DNA from: Octopus vulgaris
Lineage: Eukaryota
Direction: 5' to 3'
Length of the DNA: 64,000 bases
Assembly (NCBI GenBank): GCA_951406725.2
Contig: OX597820.1
Span: 105,524,001-105,588,000 of the forward strand
The position numbers were made by a program, and so were the translations under genes. Under the pieces are notes generated by a model that did no database searches, had not been told where the DNA came from, and worked only from the letters and a program-made list of their open reading frames with translations. This document shows positions 1,300 through 59,879 of the stretch, piece after piece (within the stretch, counting starts at the first letter, position 1; every line of letters begins with the position of its first letter).

Positions 1300-4200
1300 C
1301 GTCTTCGTCGTCGTCTATTAATGCCTGTTTTCCATGCTGGCATGGGTTGGATGATTTGACTGAGGTCTGGAGAGCCAGCAGCTACACCAGGCTGCCCTTC
1401 CTAACGCCAACCACTCCAAGAGTATAGTGGGTGCTTTTTACGTGCCACCAGTCAGGTGGACCTGGTATCGATCACGTTCAGATAGTGCTTTTTATGTGCC
1501 ACCGGTGCAGGGGCCAGTCAGTGGGTTCTGGCATCAGCCATGTTCGGTTGGTGCTTTTTACGTGCCACCAGCATAAGAGCCAATCAGATAGACTTGGCAT
1601 CGACCACATTCGGATGGCATGGAAGCCAGTCAGTAGGCACTGGCCACAGCTACTATATTGGTTTTACTTGACTCAACAGGTCATCTCAAGCATATCATAT
1701 CGCACGACGCATCAGGGGTACTCTTAACTGGGCCGGACATCTTGCACACCACAACTGATGCTTCTTAGGTCCAACTTTTCTCTCAAGGTACTTACACTCT
1801 GTCGGGTATGAACACTGACATTACACATCCATCGGAGCATACTGGCTTCATTTCTTGCGAGCTTACACATATTCTCAGCAGTCACGGCCCATGTTTCACT
1901 ACCATGTAGCATGGCTGTTCGTACACATGCATCATACAGTCTGCCTTTTACTCTGAGCAAGAGGCCTTTAGTCACCAGCAGAGGTAAGAGCTCTCTGAAC
2001 TTTGCCCAGGATATTCTTACTCTAGCAGTTACACTTTCAGCACCACTGCCCCCGCTACTGACTTGGTCACCTAGGTAATGGATGCTATCAGGAGGCGCAA
2101 TGGCCCAGTGGTTAGGGCAGCGGACTCGCGGTCGTAGGATCGCGGTTTCGATTCCCAGACCGGGCGTTGTGAGTGTTTATTGAGCGAAAACACCTAAAGC
2201 TCCACGAGGCTCCGGCAGGGATGGTGGTGATCCCTGCTGTACTCTTTCACCACAACTTTCTCTCACTCTTACTTCCTGTTTCTGTTGTACCTGTATTTCA
2301 AAGGGCCGGCCTTGTCACTCTCTGTGTCATGCTGAATATCCCCGAGAACTGCGTTAAGGGTACATGTGTCTGTGGAGTGCTCAGCCACTTACACGTTAAT
2401 TTCACGAGCAGGCTGTTCCGTTGATCGGATCAACCGGAACCCTTGTCGTCGTAACCGATGGAGTGTTTCCAGGAGGCTATCAACTATTTCTAGTTTTTCA
2501 CCCTGGAATGTGGCAGAAGATGGACTCTGCGCATTTTCAGTGTTTATTGCTCCTGAGCATCTGCCACATACAAAAACTATCTTCCTAGTTAGCCTTCCTT
2601 TGATATTGCTGCACCTCTTATGTGTCCATAGCTTACACTTGGTACATCTTATAAAGTTTCTACCTACGCCCTTTCTGCAGATCGAGCAGGGCCATCTACC
2701 TGAAGGCGTTTGTGATTTGTCTACCTTCCTACTTATTAGGACTTTGGTTTTAGCTAGATTGACTCTAAGGCCCTTCGATTCTAATCCTTGCTACACACCT
2801 GAAACTTCTCCTCCAGTTTTGATAGTGACTCAGCAATTAGAGCAAGGTCATCAACATAGAGGAGCTCCCAAGGGCATCCTGTCTTGAATTCCTCTGTTAT
2901 TGCCTGGAGGACTATGATAAATAGGAGGGGGCTGAGGACTGAACCTTGGTGGACCCCAACCTCTACCCGGAATTCTTCACTGTACTCGTAGCCAACTCTC
3001 ACAGCTCTCACTAACCATTCATCTATCCTTAGTTTCCTCATTGACCACCAGATAAGGGATTGGGGGACCCTGTCAAAGGCTTTCTCCATGTCAACGAAAG
3101 CTAGGTACAGAGGTTTATCTTTGGCTAGGTATTTCTCTTGCAGCTGTCTCACCAGAAATATGGCATCAGTGGTGCTTTTCCCTGGCACGAAACCAAACTG
3201 CATCTCGTCCAAGTTGACTCTCTCCCTAATCAGTTGGGCTATGACCCTCTCCGTAACCTTCATTACCTGATCCAACAGCTTGATACCTCTGTAATTATTT
3301 GTATCTAGGGCATCACCTTTACCTTTGTAGCAGTTGACTATTATGCTGCTACACCAGTTATTGGGTATGACTCCTTCGTGTATCACCTGGTTAACTATAC
3401 GTGTGACTAGGCTATAGCCAACACTGCCAGATATTTTGAGCATCTCTGCAGTAATTCCTGATGGGCCTGGGGCTTTCCCTGTTTTCATGCTTCTTATTGC
3501 CGTAACTACCAGAGAACTGTCAACTCGGATAGCTGGTCCCACTGTTGGGTCGACATTTGGCAGACTCTCTTTATCCCATTCATTTTCTTTATTTAGCAAC
3601 CTTTCATAGTGGCATCTCCAAACCTCTCTCTTTGCATCCTCATTTAGCGCAAGTGAGCCATCATCCATGCGAACACATTTTTCTCCTACCACATCACGAT
3701 TCTCTCTCACACACTGTCTTGCAGCACGAAAAACTTCAAGTCTTTGGTCCTCAGGGTGCAGAACATTGGCAAATTTTTTCTTATCTGCTTCCCCTCTGGC
3801 TAAATAAACCTGTCTCCTAGTTTCCCTTCTGGCAGTCTGATACAATTCCTTGCTACCTCCGTTTTTCCAGTCCCTCCAAGCCTGTTTCTTTTGTCTAATA
3901 GCCCTGTCAACCACATTGTTCCACCACCACATTACCATGGGTCGAGATGGGACTTTGCTCCATCCACAGATCTGGTCAGTGGCTCTCAGCAGATTGTCCA
4001 GTAGAAACCTCCGGCTGTATATATATAAGCTATATCCCCTTCTATTTCATCGAAGACTTCAAGTAGTACATCTCTAAATCTCTGTCCATTTGCAGGATCC
4101 TTAAGCTTTCAGACCCTTCTCCTCCGAGCTGGTCTTCTGGGCAACCATTTTGCCCTGATCCTGAAGTCGCTAACTACTAATCTATGTTGAGGGGTACATT

Positions 4201-51443: not shown

Positions 51444-54400
51444 ATGGTGAGTAGTCATCGTCTCTCGTTGCTCCACTACACAAATTATGTCGTCAAATTT
51501 ATTAATACTACTTAAAACCCGGCGAAGTTTCGCATGTCGTAGCGCAGATTTCCGTCGATTTCCGTAAAAAACTTTTATTTTTTTACATAAGTAATGAGAG
51601 CGAAAGATACTAAGAGGAAGCGATTTTATGACGAGAAGGTTTCACTTTGAAGTCGGCCTGTGTGTGTTTGATGGGGTGTGGGAGACAGACAGTATGTTGT
51701 GTAAGTGAAGTGCTTCTGTTAGTGTGTGTGAAGAGACAGAGAGAGTAATGTGTGAAAGAGAGAGATAACTGATTTTTTACTCGGTGTATGTGTATATGTA
51801 TGTCTGCATGTATGTGTGTGTGTGTGTATGTATCTATGTGTGTGTGTGTGTGTGTGTGTAAGTATGTGTGTGTGTGTATGTATGTATGTGTGTGTGTGTA
51901 TGTATCTATGTATGTGTGTGTATGTATGTATGTATGTACTCGGTGTATGTGTATATGTATGTCTGTCTCTTCGCACACACTAACAGAAGCACTTCACTTA
52001 CACAACATACTGTCTGTCTCCCACACCCCATCAAACACACACAGGCCGACTTCAAAGAGAAACCTTCTCGTCGTAAAATCGCTTCCTCTTAGTCTCTTTC
52101 GCTCTCATTACTTATGTAAAAAAATAAAAGTTTTTTACGGAAATCGACGGAAATCTGTGCTACTACAACCGAAACTATGCCTAAAACCCTTCAGTTTTTT
52201 ATGTATGTTGAGCCTATTCTTTTAATCATTTCAGTCTCATCGTAAATTTTCTGCCCCACGGCATGGCTCCAAGGGCTTTCTGCCCAAAAAGAGAAGTCAA
52301 CGTCATAAGGGCAAAATCAAGGCATTTCCAAAAGATGATCCCAAAAAGCCTGTTCATTTAACCGCTTTTATGGGTTATAAGGCTGGGATGACTCATATCG
52401 TCCGCGAAGTTGACAGACCTGGCTCAAGTAAGTTATATTTTGAGTAATTAGTCGCATTTTAATTAATGTTCTCCTGCTACGATGCTGTCGATGAAGATGG
52501 CCGACATTCCTCCGCCACGTGCATCCGATGGTTTTTACATTAAAAACTTCACTTTTTTTTATTTTAAGCCCATCATATGTTCATAATTTTCTTTTTAAAT
52601 TTCTCTCGCGCAGCATGTAAATTTTTTTTCTCTCTTTTGACAATTTTCAAAAATTTAGTTGAAAATATAAAACTTTCGTTAGAAATGAAATGGAGGCAAA
52701 AACTGATCGCTGCGGTTTCGCACCTCTCCTTGAAAAATGCAATTTTATTAAAAAGAACTGAAAAAAAAATCGGATCCCCACGTTTTAGATTACGAATATG
52801 AAAAAAAAAAAATTTTGAGTTTTATCGAAATTATTTTCCGTTTTAGATGACAGATTCCTAATATGCAAGAAACCCCATTTTCAAAGGCTAAAATCAACAG
52901 TACGGTCTTCTATAGGGCCACCAAATTTAGTTGACTAAGATTTTATGAGTAAACGGATAGCGATAAATAAATGGATGAAAAAGTTTAAAATTGGGGGAGA
53001 GGGTGAAATTATTAAACATTTTTTTTTGTTTCTCATGAAATGATGGGGGCTAATGCAAGTTCGCACCTGTCCTTGAAAAATGCATTTTTTGCTATGAAAC
53101 GTTAGGGTTCCAATATATAACACACAATGTCAGATTACGAATATGCAAAATAAAAAAAAATTCTAAATATCTCAGATATGTACGGTGGTGGAGCGATATA
53201 GTGGTTGTATACTGTCACGTTAAGTTGACAGTATACAACCAAAATAAAAAGTTTCTCATAAAATGGTGTATATTTAATTTAGATTAATTTCAATGTTTTT
53301 GTATTGCATATGTTCAATTCGCTACGATATCTTCAAAGTAAGCAAAATCATAATTCGGTACTACTTAAGAGTGGTCTTGGTGCGCGCATCCGCGCTAGCT
53401 AGTCGTGACCAGGCGATCCTACGACTACCTAGCAAAGTAAAATAACACAAAATAATTTTAAACAAAACCACAGGGATCGACTGGTCACGACTAGCTAGCG
53501 CGCAGCGGGACCACTCTTCTTAAGTAGTAGCTTATTCCGTTATGTCCGACATAAAAAGCGTAGCAATCCGATGCGAATCTGCATTAGCCCCAAAGTTGGA
53601 TTTGCAGTGTGGGGTTTGGTACTTTGGTCCCGGTGCGCGTTCTCGCGCATCCGCGCCAGCTAGTCGTGACTATGCGATCCTACAACGACTACGTAGCAAA
53701 GTATATAAAACACTAAAACAATTTTTTACAAAGTAAATAAAACTTAGTGAGGATCGCCTAATCACGACTAGCTAGCGCGCACGGGGACCTACCGGGGTTG
53801 GTATTTTAAGAAACTGAAATTTTAGTGTTTAAACCAGTTTTTGATAGATTTTAGTAATCGATACTAATTTGTTACTCACTGTCTAGTTTCGGTAATCAAT
53901 TAAAATGATTTGACATTTCAGAGGTGAATAAGAAAGAGGTATTGGAAGGTGTCACCATTATTGAATGTCCACCTGTTGTCTGTATTGGAGTCACTGGCTA
54001 CATCGATACTCCACGTGGTCCACGTGCTTTCAAGTCTATTTTTGCTGAACATCTTGGAGAAGAGTGCAGGCGTCGTTTCTATAAGAACTGGTAAGTAAAG
54101 TTAATTATATCTTAGGTAATCCTTCAGTGTTTTTAAAAAGTAAACGAAAATGGAATAAAAGTTGATTTTACTATTAAGCAACGTAGACACTGGGCAGGGT
54201 TTAAAGATCATGGACAACTCATTGGCTTCTGTCATTTGGCACGGAAATACCCGAAGTGAAATGGTTTAATTTTATCGAGTTATATCGAAAGAATGGCTTT
54301 TTTTAATGCAGGAACACTATATATCAAGGGCGGAGATTCCGCCCGAAACTGCATTTCAAAATTTGCCCCCCCCTCCCTCCAGTTTTTTTTATTTTCACTT

Positions 54401-57400
54401 TCCAAAAAAAAATTTTAGGCGAAATACGGAGAGAATAGGGAGATTATGATTCAGAAAAATTGTAAAATTTCAATTTTTCAAAAAACGACTCCCCTCCGGC
54501 CTGTGTTAAGAAGTGAAATTAGTGTTTTCTCTACTAAGTTTCACACGTCCATAGAATTATAAAATGGCAGGCGCAAAAGGTATCTAAACAGGAAACCTGA
54601 CACAACGTTTTCAAAATTCTAATACAAGTTAACAAACTAGCCCCAACCGGAAATCAGACAAGTCAAATCGAGGATCAACTTTCGAAATACGAATTACCAA
54701 AAAAAAAAGATCTTTTGTAACATTTTGTGTGTGCAAAAAAAACTAATTTTTTACATACGTCTTAATTCCAAAAGACCATCAATTACATGTTTGGCATGTA
54801 GAAAAAACACTTTAATTTCACTTGATAGGTTGGAGGGGGACAGGAGTGAGGTTTGATTTTTTTTTTTTTTTTTTTAATTGAAATATTACAGAATATATTT
54901 ATTTTTCAGAATCATAAATTCTGTATATTTCTATGGATTTCGCCAAAAAAGTTTTAAAATGAAAATTTAAGAAATTTAGGTAGGAGGGGATTTAAATCTT
55001 GAAATGCAGATTTGGAATCGCACCCTCGGTGTGCTGAGTTAAGGTTTCTCATAGCTTCATTTTCAGGTTTATATATTTGTTTTGCAAGATTCTTGGTGTG
55101 AAATCGTGTGTTGAAACAGATATTGCTGTATTTAGGAATGGTCATGTTGCCAGTTTAGCCAATAAAAATATATATTTGGTATTAATTTGCTTCAGCTTTG
55201 TGAACTCTAGCCAGGCTAGCAAGATGCTGAAGAACCCTATATTCAGTTGCCTACGGAAAAACCGTGACGACTCAACAGCTCCATTAAATAATGTCTCCTC
55301 CAAAATATGCATTAGCAGAGTCACATCAAGTGTAGAACGACTAGAACTCCCCAAAGGCCAAGCTGATGGTGAATATAAAGAACAAAATCTACAAAGAACT
55401 AAGTGAACAAGAAAAATGCAGGCGCATATTAAGAGGAATTAAAAGCATTGCCACGAACAGAGAGAATCACACTTGTGGATGTAATAACACATTATACGCC
55501 AGTGCAATAGACATTTTAAAGAAGAAATTCTCGTGGTTAAAACGTAACAATACAAACTTGCAAAAGAGAAAGAGGTGCCCAGGTATAATAACGGAATTGT
55601 TATGGCAGATGTCTCACTACCATTTGAATTCAGCAAGGACAATGACTCAGACTAAAAATTGATACTTCAACTACTATGCTGTATTTAATAAGGTGAATAC
55701 CATCCAATGCCTATCTGAGATTGATGGGTCACAAAAATATGTTGGAATTTATGTACGACAATAAGATCAACAAACACAACTCAACAATAATCGCAGCAGC
55801 AACAATAACAACGGCGAAAACGAACATAAGAACACAAGCAACAGATACAAATACAAAAGCAGAAAAATCGTATACAACAATAGGGGGAATGGACACACAC
55901 ACACAGATAACCATAGTCACAAGGACACAAATAAAAGTTGTCATGGTGGGATGGAGAATAAAGTTGAATACAACAATTCTTGGACAGGGAGTCAGTAGAC
56001 TTGAAACGGAAAACACTACTGGTAGGAACAAAAACAACCACAACAGAGGGACCAACAGGCAGACAAGAGAACCAACACAGAAGTGTGATGAAATAACTCT
56101 GGCCGAAATAAGATTAAGAAATAAAACTGAAGCAAATTAACACCAAATATATAGTGTGTGTGCTTTTATTGGCCAAACTGGCAACATGACCATTCCTAAA
56201 TACGATATTCATTTTCAAGGATATCTGAAATTCAAGAGCAAGCCTCATGAATTTTCTTACTTTTTAAAATTTTCCATACTGAAGGATTATTTTATCTCCG
56301 TTCATAACATGCATATCTTAAACTGTGCTGACTTTCTCTTGTAGGACTATACCACATAAATGCAGGGGAAGTCTGCAGATAAGCAATGGTATAGTTCCTC
56401 TCAAATGGTCTTCGAAGTCAATGCTAGTTACTTAAATGCTTGGCACACAGGTTGTGTAAACTATCTTGCATATTTAGTATTTACTTCGGTGGCTGGTTTG
56501 ACTGAGCTGAGTTGCTTGATGTAACGAGTCTCCGCTCACTGTTCTTACGTGATGAGACTTGCTACTTAATTACCCTCCTACTTTAAAGGTCCCGCTCTAA
56601 GAGGAAGGCATATACCAAATACGCCAAGAAGTACCAAGATGCAGCTGGCAAGAAGAGTATTGAAAAGGATTATCAAAAGTTGATCCGTTATTGCAACACC
56701 ATTAGGATTATTGTCCATACTCAGGTGAGTTCACACTATCAATTTTAACAAAGTTTGATAACTGAAGCTAATATGTACTTGAGTGGTCTAAACTAAAATC
56801 CTACATAAAAAAATTTCCTGTTGATTGTAAGACTTAGTTTAATTACGAAAGTGATTTTACATTGGAAAGTTATTTGAAATGAGTGCAGTGTATGTCAACT
56901 ATGGTTAAATGTTTAGAAGGATGTCACTTTCAAACTTACTTTGAACTGGAATTTTTCTACATTTTAGATTCGCCAGCTCAGGAAGCGCACCAAGAAGGCA
57001 CATATTTGTGAAATTCAGCTGAATGGTGGCACCACTGAAGATAAGGTGAAGTGGGCTAGAGCCAATTTGGAGAAGCCAATATCCATTGCTGATGTCTTCC
57101 AGCAAGATGAATTAATTGATGTAATTGGTGTGACCCGTGGCAAGGGTATGAAAGGTGAGTAGGTTTTACTGGAAAACTAGTATTATTTACGTTGTGCGGA
57201 GGGGGTGTTGCCACTTGTATCTGATGGCTTTCTTATGTAATTTCTAATATACTCAAGGAAAAATTTGGCACTGTCATGCCTTTAGTTGTCAGAAGTGAAA
57301 GTAGAAAAATCTGACGTCGGACGTCAATTGTGTATTTGCGTCAGGTTTATACCTTCGTTAATTTACGCCGTTTACGTACCACCACGCTAGGTTTATAAAA

Positions 57401-59879
57401 CAAGTTCAGTTTAAAGTTTATAAATAAATACATTTTATAAATAAATACAGCAGATAGCATTAATTGTCTTAGGAGACATGGACTTTTGAATACCCAGAAA
57501 ATATGTATATCGTGTGGAGGTAGCATGAGTGAAATAGCGAAAAAAAAATTTGTCGGATGAAGTAATATGGTCATGTGGAAGGCCTTGTAGAAAAACCGTT
57601 CCAATTAGAAAAGGAACATTTTTAGAAAATAGTAAATTGAAGTGTCAACAAATTATAGATATATTGTATTGGGCAAAAGAAGATTTAGCAAAGGGAATAG
57701 GACAGGAATGTCATATAGCAAATGTAGCTGTAACAGATTGGAGGAATTTTTGCCGTGATATATGTGCAGAAAATTATGTTGCACAAAACATTAAGCTCGG
57801 AGGGCTGGTAGAGATAGACGAAAGCGTGTTTGTTAGAAGAAAATATGTTGGCCATCGGGTTAAAACGCAGTGGGTATTTGGCGCTTTAGAAAGAGATACC
57901 AGATGTTTTTTAGTGGCATTGGAAGATCGGACAGCGGACACCCTTTTACAAATTATACAAGACCGTATATTGCCTGGTACAACCATAATTTCCGACCTTT
58001 CGCGTTCGTACAATACGCTCAATCAGCTAGGACACAGGCATTTGACCGTGAATCATTCAATAAATTTTGTTGATCCGGTAACATTTGCCACAACCAACCA
58101 TATAGAATGTTTATGGATGCATGTGAAGAATTGTAACTAAAGAGAAAATGGAACAGCTCGAAATTTACTTCAGACCCATCTCATCGAATTCATGTGGCGT
58201 TATGTTGATATATTTTGATATATTCGGAAAGTTATTGGAGTAAATTCGACAGCTATATCCATGTGTTTGAGACCTTAGAGAGTATAAGTATCTACAGAGC
58301 ATAAGTATCATATTTATTTTTAAACTTAACTTCAAGCTTCATTTGTTTTATATTTTGATAAATTCTCTGTTGAAAATAATATTTTTACATTCTAAATAAT
58401 TTGCGTTTATTAATTTGATATGTTTACACACGTTTTTGATAAATTTACATGCGTTTTGATAAATTCTACGGAAAGAAACGAAGGTGGATGTCACACTTTT
58501 TCTACTTTCCTCCTGACAACTAAAAGCATGACAGTGCCAAAAATTTAAATTTATCTTTTCAGGTGTTACTTCTCGTTGGCATACCAAAAAGCTGCCCAGG
58601 AAAACTCACAAAGGATTGCGAAAAGTTGCTTGTATTGGTGCTTGGCATCCTAGCAGAGTCCAGTATTCTGTAGCAAGAGCTGGTCAAAAAGGTTATCATC
58701 ATCGTACTGAGATCAACAAAAAAATCTATCGTGTTGGTCGTGGTATTCACACCCATGAAGGTAAAGTAGTTAAAAACAATGCTGCTACTGAATATGATCC
58801 AACTGACAAATCCATCACTCCTGTCGGTGGCTTCCCTCACTATGGTAAAGTGAATCAAGATTTCCTGATGTTAAAAGGCTGTGTTATGGGACCCAGAAAA
58901 AGGATTCTTACTATGCGTAAGGTAAATATCCTGAATTCCATTAAAATTAAATGTTCTACACAAAATGAGATCACACAGAAGCTTATAAAATATATGAAAT
59001 TTCCTAAGTATGATCAAACTTAGTAAGACATAAGCTCACTTATTTGCTTGTTTATGCACTAAATACCTGCCAAGGTATTTAGTGCATAAACAATAATTGT
59101 TTCAACGTCTCTTCCATGCTGGCATCGATTGGACGATCCAGCAAGAACATTGTGATCTTTGTGATCTTTACCAGTTTATACTGGAGGTTGTAGCTTAGTC
59201 TATATTTTGCTGGTATTTTTTCCTTCTTTTTGTATGCTTCTACCACATATAAATTGTACAGACGTGTCATACAGTTTGCATTTAAACCAAAAGACATGGT
59301 TTGTAACCAAGCTTCTAAACCAGGCAGCCATCAACATTTTGTAATTCGATTTTTTTTTTTCTTTTTCTTTTTAGTCTCTCCTGACTCACTTCAAGCGTAA
59401 GGCTCTGGAGAAGATAACATTGAAGTTTATTGATACTGCCAGTAAATTTGGAAATGGTCGCTTCCAAACATTGGCTGAAAAGAGAAACTTTATGGTAAGT
59501 GTTGTATTGTTCTTGTGATGAATTGAAATCTGGTTAAAGTTGATATGTCTGTATGTGAAGATGTTTGTGTAAAGTTCCTTATTTGAATTGTAATTTAAAT
59601 ATGCACTATCAAGTGTTGCAGTCTGATATTTTTTCCGAGCTCAAGAGTCACTGAGCTGTTTGTCGGTAATTTCTTGGTGCTGTGAGTCTCGAATATTAAA
59701 GCTCAGTCTAAATGCTTAGAGTGTGATATTTACCATTACTCTGACGCCAATGGCTGATACATGTTCATTTTACTGTTTATTATACAAAATGAACAGTATT
59801 TTACATTATATTTACAAAAATACATTTTCTTTTACAGGGTCCCCTCAAAAAGGATCGTCTTAAGGAGGAGGCTGCATAA
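51444..59879 (+). CDS. RPL3: 60S ribosomal protein L3 (uL3), 402 aa, 8 coding exons
   Basis: Exons 51444-51446, 52235-52427, 53922-54090, 56589-56724, 56968-57154, 58563-58921, 59375-59494 and 59838-59879 (1209 nt, all GT-AG). [64 protein letters not shown] at 59898-59903. Confidence 0.98.
51521..52181. mobile_element. Merlin-type MITE in RPL3 intron 1
   Basis: GGC...GCC termini, about 220-bp near-perfect arms (51521-51740 / 51962-52181), 8-bp TSD TAAAACCC (51513-51520, 52182-52189). Confidence 0.85.
52235..52427 (+). CDS. RPL3: RPL3 exon 2
   Basis: tttcag|[12 protein letters not shown]...VDRPGS|gtaagt. Confidence 0.97.
53359..53789. mobile_element. Two related short palindromic MITEs in RPL3 intron 2
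   Basis: 53359-53529 and 53626-53789 share ggtc..gcgc.agctagtcgtga / tcacgactagctagcgcgc..ggacc arms. Confidence 0.75.
53922..54090 (+). CDS. RPL3: RPL3 exon 3
   Basis: [17 protein letters not shown]...RRRFYKN, donor gtaagt. Confidence 0.97.
55128..56203. mobile_element. Unclassified element with about 75-bp terminal inverted repeats in RPL3 intron 3
   Basis: gtatttaggaatggtcatgttgccagtttagccaataaaa / ttttattggccaaactggcaacatgaccattcctaaatac. Confidence 0.7.
56589..56724 (+). CDS. RPL3: RPL3 exon 4
   Basis: [17 protein letters not shown]...IRIIVHTQ|gtgagt. Confidence 0.96.
56968..57154 (+). CDS. RPL3: RPL3 exon 5
   Basis: [13 protein letters not shown]...[13 protein letters not shown]|gtgagt. 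Confidence 0.97.
57267..58538 (+). mobile_element. Merlin (IS1595/ISXO2-like DDE) DNA transposon with decayed transposase, in RPL3 intron 5
   Basis: TIRs GGCACTGTCATGC..TAGTTGTCAG / CTGACAACTA..GCATGACAGTGCC and 8-bp TSD AAAAATTT. ORF 57550-58140 has [30 protein letters not shown] and TNHIE, then a premature TAA. Confidence 0.93.
58563..58921 (+). CDS. RPL3: RPL3 exon 6
   Basis: [32 protein letters not shown]...[11 protein letters not shown]|gtaaat. Confidence 0.98.
59375..59494 (+). CDS. RPL3: RPL3 exon 7
   Basis: [32 protein letters not shown]...FM|gtaagt. Confidence 0.97.
59636..59764 (+). ncRNA. Candidate intronic box H/ACA snoRNA
   Basis: Hairpin 59636-59691, H box ATATTA at 59693-59698, hairpin 59703-59757 with an internal pocket, ACA at 59759-59761 plus 3 nt. 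Folded by eye. Confidence 0.6.
59838..59879 (+). CDS. RPL3: RPL3 exon 8 (to TAA)
   Basis: ttacag|[13 protein letters not shown]. Confidence 0.96.
   Translation, partial: GPLKKDRLKEEAA

Follow-up and report, generated by a model that had tools for sequence, protein, structure and literature searches.

Unproductive splicing of RPL3 has been described before for human, worm and fly genes, which are compared here through selected passages of the cited reports. In human, a cryptic 3′ splice site in intron 3 of rpL3 is under feedback control, with hnRNP H1 acting on G-runs together with KHSRP and NPM (PMC3177206), a mechanism that has been described as incompletely explained (PMC4937301). In C. 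elegans, rpl-3 reacts when it is itself knocked down, and a comparison of the gene between worm, fly and human revealed no stretch kept in all three (PMC4937301). Drosophila RpL3 has an NMD isoform (PMC2689934), and its boxes I, II and III form competing stems that bias the choice between two acceptors joined to a common donor (PMC13092977; PMC2724269). Control of RpL3 acceptors by RNA structure has thus already been reported in Drosophila, and the idea alone is therefore not new (PMC13092977).

The octopus gene lies in a 64,000-nt stretch of Octopus vulgaris contig OX597820.1, referred to here as the window. It has eight exons, a 402-codon frame and GT-AG borders at every intron, and its exon 3 translation is identical at 54/55 residues to uL3 in PDB 9EHO (chain B), a structure of the octopus ribosome (PMC13321053). 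The parts relevant here, all based on junction and frame evidence, are listed below.

53922..54090, + strand: RPL3 exon 3, 169 nt, ending at the common donor TG/GTAAGT within the Trp122 codon
54091..56588, + strand: RPL3 intron 3, 2498 nt, the third intron
56589..56724, + strand: RPL3 exon 4, 136 nt

Retention of intron 3 carries the frame into TGG TAA, an immediate stop. Human RPL3 intron 3 presumably occupies the identical coding position, following an exon 3 that we also take to be 169 nt. The locus shares with mammalian rpL3 the gene, the third intron, a cryptic upstream 3′ splice site and a stop-bearing isoform; it differs in that the human cis-elements are G-runs, that no C-loop appears in the passages compared and that feedback has been shown in human (PMC3177206). 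The intron 1 arrangement of C. elegans rpl-3 and the L10ARE is similar in placing a conserved element between two splice sites of a ribosomal-protein intron, but the L10ARE (rpl-1/RPL10A), 39 nt of sequence, has 5′ sites on both sides, whereas in octopus a structure motif lies between a pair of 3′ sites (PMC4937301). The common donor, two acceptors and competing stems of Drosophila RpL3 also have octopus counterparts; however, the fly stems are long-range duplexes with microRNAs as the proposed trigger, and neither C-loops nor autoregulation are mentioned in the passages compared (PMC13092977).

A sequence-only reading of this DNA had proposed a poison acceptor 244 nt upstream of the canonical one, and the two AGs are indeed found at 56343-56344 and 56587-56588 with this spacing.

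56317..56344, + strand: alternative (upstream) acceptor, with candidate branch sites CTTAAA (56317-22) or CTGAC (56328-32), a pyrimidine tract and TAG
56345..56588, + strand: poison extension of exon 4, 244 nt, single copy in the genome
56433..56435, + strand: premature stop TAA, from translation across 54090^56345
56566..56588, + strand: canonical acceptor, with candidate branch TTAAT (A at 56569) abutting the base of the distal hairpin, a pyrimidine tract and AAG

The TAA claimed to follow the alternative junction in frame is confirmed and closes a product of 151 aa. Between it and the exon 4/5 junction lie 289 nt, more than the 50 nt expected of an NMD target, and four junctions follow downstream. 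The ranking of the upstream acceptor as strong and the canonical one as weaker did not hold, given that pyrimidines fill 10/13 of positions -16 to -4 in the former and 11/13 in the latter, although the canonical site does end in AAG. The branch A of CTGAC, which that reading had proposed, sits only 13 nt from the alternative AG; CTTAAA is the other candidate. A repeat origin of the 244-nt segment is ruled out by its single copy.

Use of the acceptor was assessed by comparing four contig sets, from four studies, over 53800-57200 for splice joints. None of the listed sets is recorded as RNA; spliced joints occur in all four examined, which were therefore treated as RNA. The canonical junction 54090^56589 is present in every set, and the alternative junction 54090^56345, which joins GT to AG, in one of the four (X14). 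The latter is carried by a single 302-nt contig in which exon 3 is followed by the 244 nt and then by exon 4, at a depth of 11.1 against 96.6 for the canonical contig; its short side of 28 letters is below the 31-letter bridging rule, as is that of the canonical joint (25-28 letters in three of the four runs). Because contig sets lose rare joints, the lack of 54090^56345 in the other three runs is uninformative. Contigs unbroken across 56344 in X3, X5 and X10, which in X3 and X5 continue from the intron into exon 4, fit unspliced intron or DNA. In all four runs contig depth is greater over the 3′ part of intron 3 than over intron 4, a difference that is no evidence since contig depth is unable to rank gene parts. 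Listed variants number at least 1 in the 385 nt of 56204-56588 vs at least 31 in the 2113 nt upstream, a weak contrast (p 0.05) that is left out of the argument. At junction level, the premature-stop acceptor of octopus RPL3 is in use.

Between the two acceptors lie predicted hairpins with a recurrent internal loop, together with a competing stem.

56343..56399, + strand: stem 1 (state A), a 12-bp helix containing a single bulge, predicted to pair the alternative AG; the competing arrangement was seen only in the window
56380..56518, + strand: proximal C-loop-type hairpin (state B), predicted, excluding stem 1
56521..56565, + strand: distal C-loop-type hairpin, predicted, the second stem of the sequence-only reading

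The C-loop is an RNA 3D motif (Motif Atlas group IL_73276.5) known also from a regulated bacterial mRNA (PMC4551918; PMC2952876; PMC9516175), and it has been described as a protein-binding motif (PMC2952876; PMC9516175). Its consensus, closed by canonical pairs, sets N-C-N-C-U against A-(0-2 nt)-N (PMC4551918) and is matched in the 244-nt segment by two tandem internal loops of the form C[C(U/G)C]Y/R[1-2 nt]G. In the proximal hairpin, 56392-97 pairs with 56504-09, 56401-06 with 56496-501, and an outer helix joins 56380-87 to 56511-18; the loop sets CUC (56398-400) opposite CU (56502-03) and encloses 95 nt. The distal hairpin consists of CUC (56530-32), the loop CGC (56533-35), UCAC (56536-39) paired with GUGA (56549-52), U (56553) and GAG (56554-56). 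It ends at 56565 and TTAAT (56566-56570) follows directly, in agreement with the earlier claim of a stem next to the likely canonical branch point.

Both stems of the sequence-only reading are recovered by folding models at their proposed positions. Stem 1 (56343-56354/56387-56399, inner 56361-56365/56373-56377) has a z of -3.04, with 3/200 shuffles equally good, and the stem at 56521-56565 a z of -4.76, with 0/200. The local fold of the proximal hairpin reaches a z of -3.05 and a 301-nt region one of -3.37 (0/100 shuffles equally good). The 244-nt segment itself folds at a z of -2.86, and two of 20 other intron windows, both inverted-repeat-like hairpins by inspection, fold better. Stem 1 and the proximal C-loop stem are mutually exclusive because both need 56392-56397. 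Their energy gap is about 0-2 kcal/mol, and across 24 folding contexts of the window stem 1 leads in 22 and the proximal loop stem in 2, under energy models that leave out non-canonical pairs and ligands.

The position of the loops in the window was also examined with models built elsewhere. Model R1, made from five distal hairpins outside the window and outside the clitellates, has its top match on both strands of the 64 kb at 56522-56564 (28.0 bits, E 3e-4; next 14.9 bits); it matched none of the clitellate loops. Model R2, from four proximal hairpins, missed the proximal loop of the window, and a proximal pattern drawn from non-window loops gives two matches on its two strands, one of them at 56393. 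A scan of the 2.8-Gb genome with the distal pattern gives 78 matches (reversed control, 70), and the location of the pattern here is therefore not chance. A loose loop descriptor, which matches 16 positions on one strand of the window and 20 on the other and overlooks several clitellate loops, has no force by itself.

Conservation was assessed by a metagenome scan with exon 3, which returned 80 loci, 22 of them with an intron at the identical TG/GT position. Twelve of these introns are complete, one (L031) ends inside the intron past the distal hairpin, and nine stop short of the element or break off at its start. A quick protein tree, together with best hits, groups L028 with Mercenaria (support 95) as a bivalve, and L029, L030 and L032 with Bugula (100) as bryozoans. 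Eight loci group with Helobdella (91) as clitellate annelids, and L031 comes from an unplaced animal. Two tandem loops are present in all 12 complete introns (1 bivalve, 3 bryozoan and 8 clitellate) and in the window, within about 220 nt of the canonical acceptor, and the incomplete intron shows the distal loop. A search for genomic RPL3 introns of vertebrates, worm or fly yielded none (five loci in genome contigs, none used; 0 in viral contigs). The octopus-type element has so far been seen only in lophotrochozoans and the one unplaced animal.

All 27 loop instances have a C-G closing pair and a C(U/G)C loop opposite 1-2 bases, and their flanking pairs swap between lineages (UA/CG and CG/AU). 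The C-loop shape, a 3-nt strand C-N-(C/A) opposite 0-2 extruded bases with canonical pairs around it, is found in 27/27, the instances having been chosen with this shape in mind. The partner of position 5 forms U-A in 24/27 and C-G in 3/27, and position 7 is G throughout (27/27). From these sequences, we infer crossing non-canonical pairs C2/A6 and C4/G7. Compared with known C-loops, the octopus copies are distinct in being tandem and within a spliceosomal intron.

The loop partners were located by patterns made after viewing folds, and the 135/135 paired cells obtained in this way are therefore no independent test. In unconstrained local folds of the other introns, the proximal closing pair forms in 12/12 (P 0.63-0.98) and the distal one in 10/12. 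The eight clitellate introns (1.1-1.7 kb) are alignable between distant pairs only in their last ~205-255 nt. Their consensus fold has 63 pairs, eight with two-sided changes, and an RNAalifold covariation term of only -0.31. Paired cells amount to 95.1% of the clitellate alignment vs 93.4 in shuffles (0/500), and cells with a two-sided change to 13 vs 5.0 (0/500), figures that may be inflated by the close kinship of the eight species. Further pair types are not above shuffles in this alignment (492/500).

In most species the conserved block begins right after AGs that are candidate alternative acceptors only, and the clitellate candidate AGs lie within a separate conserved hairpin. In the window and several other introns, candidate branch sites are placed at the foot of the distal hairpin or within it. 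As separate observations, this clitellate upstream hairpin with its candidate acceptor is tandemly duplicated in L011 (2871-2960, 45-nt unit), and the bivalve L028 has an additional, third hairpin at 2250-2281, after the candidate acceptor and before the proximal loop, whose 3x1 loop sets C[CUA]C against G[U]G.

The AG-masking stem 1 was not seen in other lineages among the 12 complete introns, where the proximal loop forms without competition of the stem 1 type. In the modelled folds it may be an octopus-specific 'off' state or a chance fold, and it is known from one species. Neither contrary outcome named beforehand, an unused acceptor or an unconserved segment, occurred. The proposal of a mollusc circuit with RNA structure as the switch is supported in part, by the used acceptor, the NMD-placed stop and the segment kept at the orthologous intron position in other animals, and is altered in its structure, the conserved one being a pair of C-loop-type hairpins in place of stem 1.

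Other features of the RPL3 introns and loci were noted on the way. Intron 7 holds a likely H/ACA snoRNA at 59633-59763 (+), which has two hairpins and an ACA tail and is weakly matched by RF01607 ceN100 (E 0.0011; 35 bits against a gathering cutoff of 80), and at 59514-59626 (+) a box C-like TGATGA and a box D-like CTGA about 110 nt apart, without Rfam match. Weak C/D snoRNA matches, below gathering, also occur in other RPL3 introns of L028 (3489-3582, U83/U83B-like) and L030 (2269-2350, snoR77Y-like). Intron 3 contains inverted repeat arms at 55128-55199 and 56123-56203, separated by about 1 kb and multi-copy in the contig sets, which match over 40 nt at 98% and over 31 nt at 94%. They could pair into a 70-bp duplex whose end lies 140 nt ahead of the alternative acceptor. 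A second, decayed and MITE-like set lies at 54407-54502 and 54866-55004. A long-range complement of the canonical pyrimidine tract (54975-54995 to 56566-56586, 21 nt, 81%) falls in a repeat arm and is probably chance. In a bryozoan transcript contig (L027), RPL3 at 14-1216 is followed 200 nt later by a frame at 1417-3828 that we take, from its sequence type, to be IFT140-like, a possible dicistronic transcript or read-through; the same neighbour adjoins RPL3 in L030 (3268-4205).

The ligand proposed for the loops is uL3 itself. In the ribosome, uL3 presumably contacts the C-loop helix that follows the sarcin-ricin loop. In octopus 28S rRNA, 14 nt separate the sarcin-ricin loop from a 3x1 loop, G[CAA]C/G[C]C, of the same shape and with different flanks. 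A known C-loop at the same offset appears in an archaeal 23S list (PMC2952876). In the literature searched, contact of uL3 is described with the neighbouring helix 94 (PMC2995063) and not with the C-loop helix itself. The 244 nt show no sequence mimicry of 28S rRNA, as 91/200 shuffles score equally.

The preferred reading, to which a probability of about 60% is given, is that the second acceptor adds a stop and that the two conserved, predicted C-loop hairpins bind excess uL3 and thereby turn splicing towards the poison form. Starting from the observed junction, stop and recurrence of both loops at the same intron position, we infer the ligand and the degradation steps as follows. The two hairpins are very probably the regulatory cis-element. 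Free uL3 would be the ligand, reading them in the manner of a 28S rRNA C-loop, an assignment that falls somewhat short of an even chance. A ligand on the distal hairpin would block the canonical branch point at its foot, so that the upstream acceptor is used or the intron kept. In octopus, binding to the proximal loop might also unzip stem 1 and free the upstream AG, a refinement that is rather less likely than not. The 244-nt isoform, or the retained intron with its immediate stop, would then be degraded, and NMD of the isoform is very probable.

The same poison circuit and hairpins could instead serve another factor, be it an hnRNP, a different splicing protein or a small RNA, with uL3 acting indirectly through partners as in the human proposal. 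This is considered unlikely, even though human rpL3 requires hnRNP H1, KHSRP and NPM (PMC3177206), a response of the stems in fly RpL3 to microRNAs has been reported (PMC13092977), C-loops are also bound by other, unrelated proteins, VIRP1 among them (PMC9516175), and the segment lacks sequence likeness to 28S rRNA. An hnRNP would find only one of the 12 G-runs of intron 3 in the segment (GGGG at 56365); the loop bases are kept while their flanks swap, as is expected of a ligand that reads structure; and ribosomal proteins elsewhere bind their own introns directly (PMC4937301; PMC3315480).

It is improbable that the hairpins are passive and merely slow or gate intron 3 splicing, with most unproductive transcripts arising by retention (TGG TAA), the acceptor before 56345 used through minor leakage and stem 1 formed by chance. 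The unbroken intron-exon 4 contigs of X3 and X5, the contig across 56344 in X10, a junction in one of four runs and a stem 1 competition confined to the window would suit such a view, but the three runs lacking the junction carry no information for the reason given above, candidate acceptors directly precede the conserved block in most species, and human and fly have documented alternative acceptors that are orthologous. Less probable still is an intron-encoded small RNA, such as an H/ACA-like snoRNA, with the junction as its by-product. Two hairpins within a ribosomal-protein intron, and the weak snoRNA matches in other introns here and in L028 and L030, invite this interpretation; however, 56345-56588 has no Rfam match at gathering or at E up to 5, and the elements of seven other loci have none at E up to 1. 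An identity as H/ACA snoRNA was rejected, since by inspection no H box, ACA tail or guide pockets were seen, the 3x1 loops being too small for such pockets and the hairpins lying against the branch point.

Binding of excess uL3 by the two hairpins remains the preferred reading, and a bolder version of it may be put forward tentatively, with the odds against it. The twin hairpins would be an ancient uL3 sensor in RPL3 intron 3, dating at least from the ancestor of molluscs, annelids and bryozoans and missed by sequence alignment; they would mimic the rRNA C-loop directly, and in octopus binding would flip a two-state fold and uncover the poison acceptor. The circuit is a known one, its ligand here is putative, and the cross-phylum structured element is apparently undescribed: searches of a literature that excludes subscription journals gave no paper on an RPL3 C-loop, on a conserved structure joined to an alternative 3′ site or on NMD of octopus ribosomal-protein transcripts. 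An intronic RNA motif common to three animal phyla is uncommon. With its two 3-nt loops, the element offers a small, mutable candidate for RPL3 feedback, and its structure pattern can be searched for in vertebrate, fly and worm introns.
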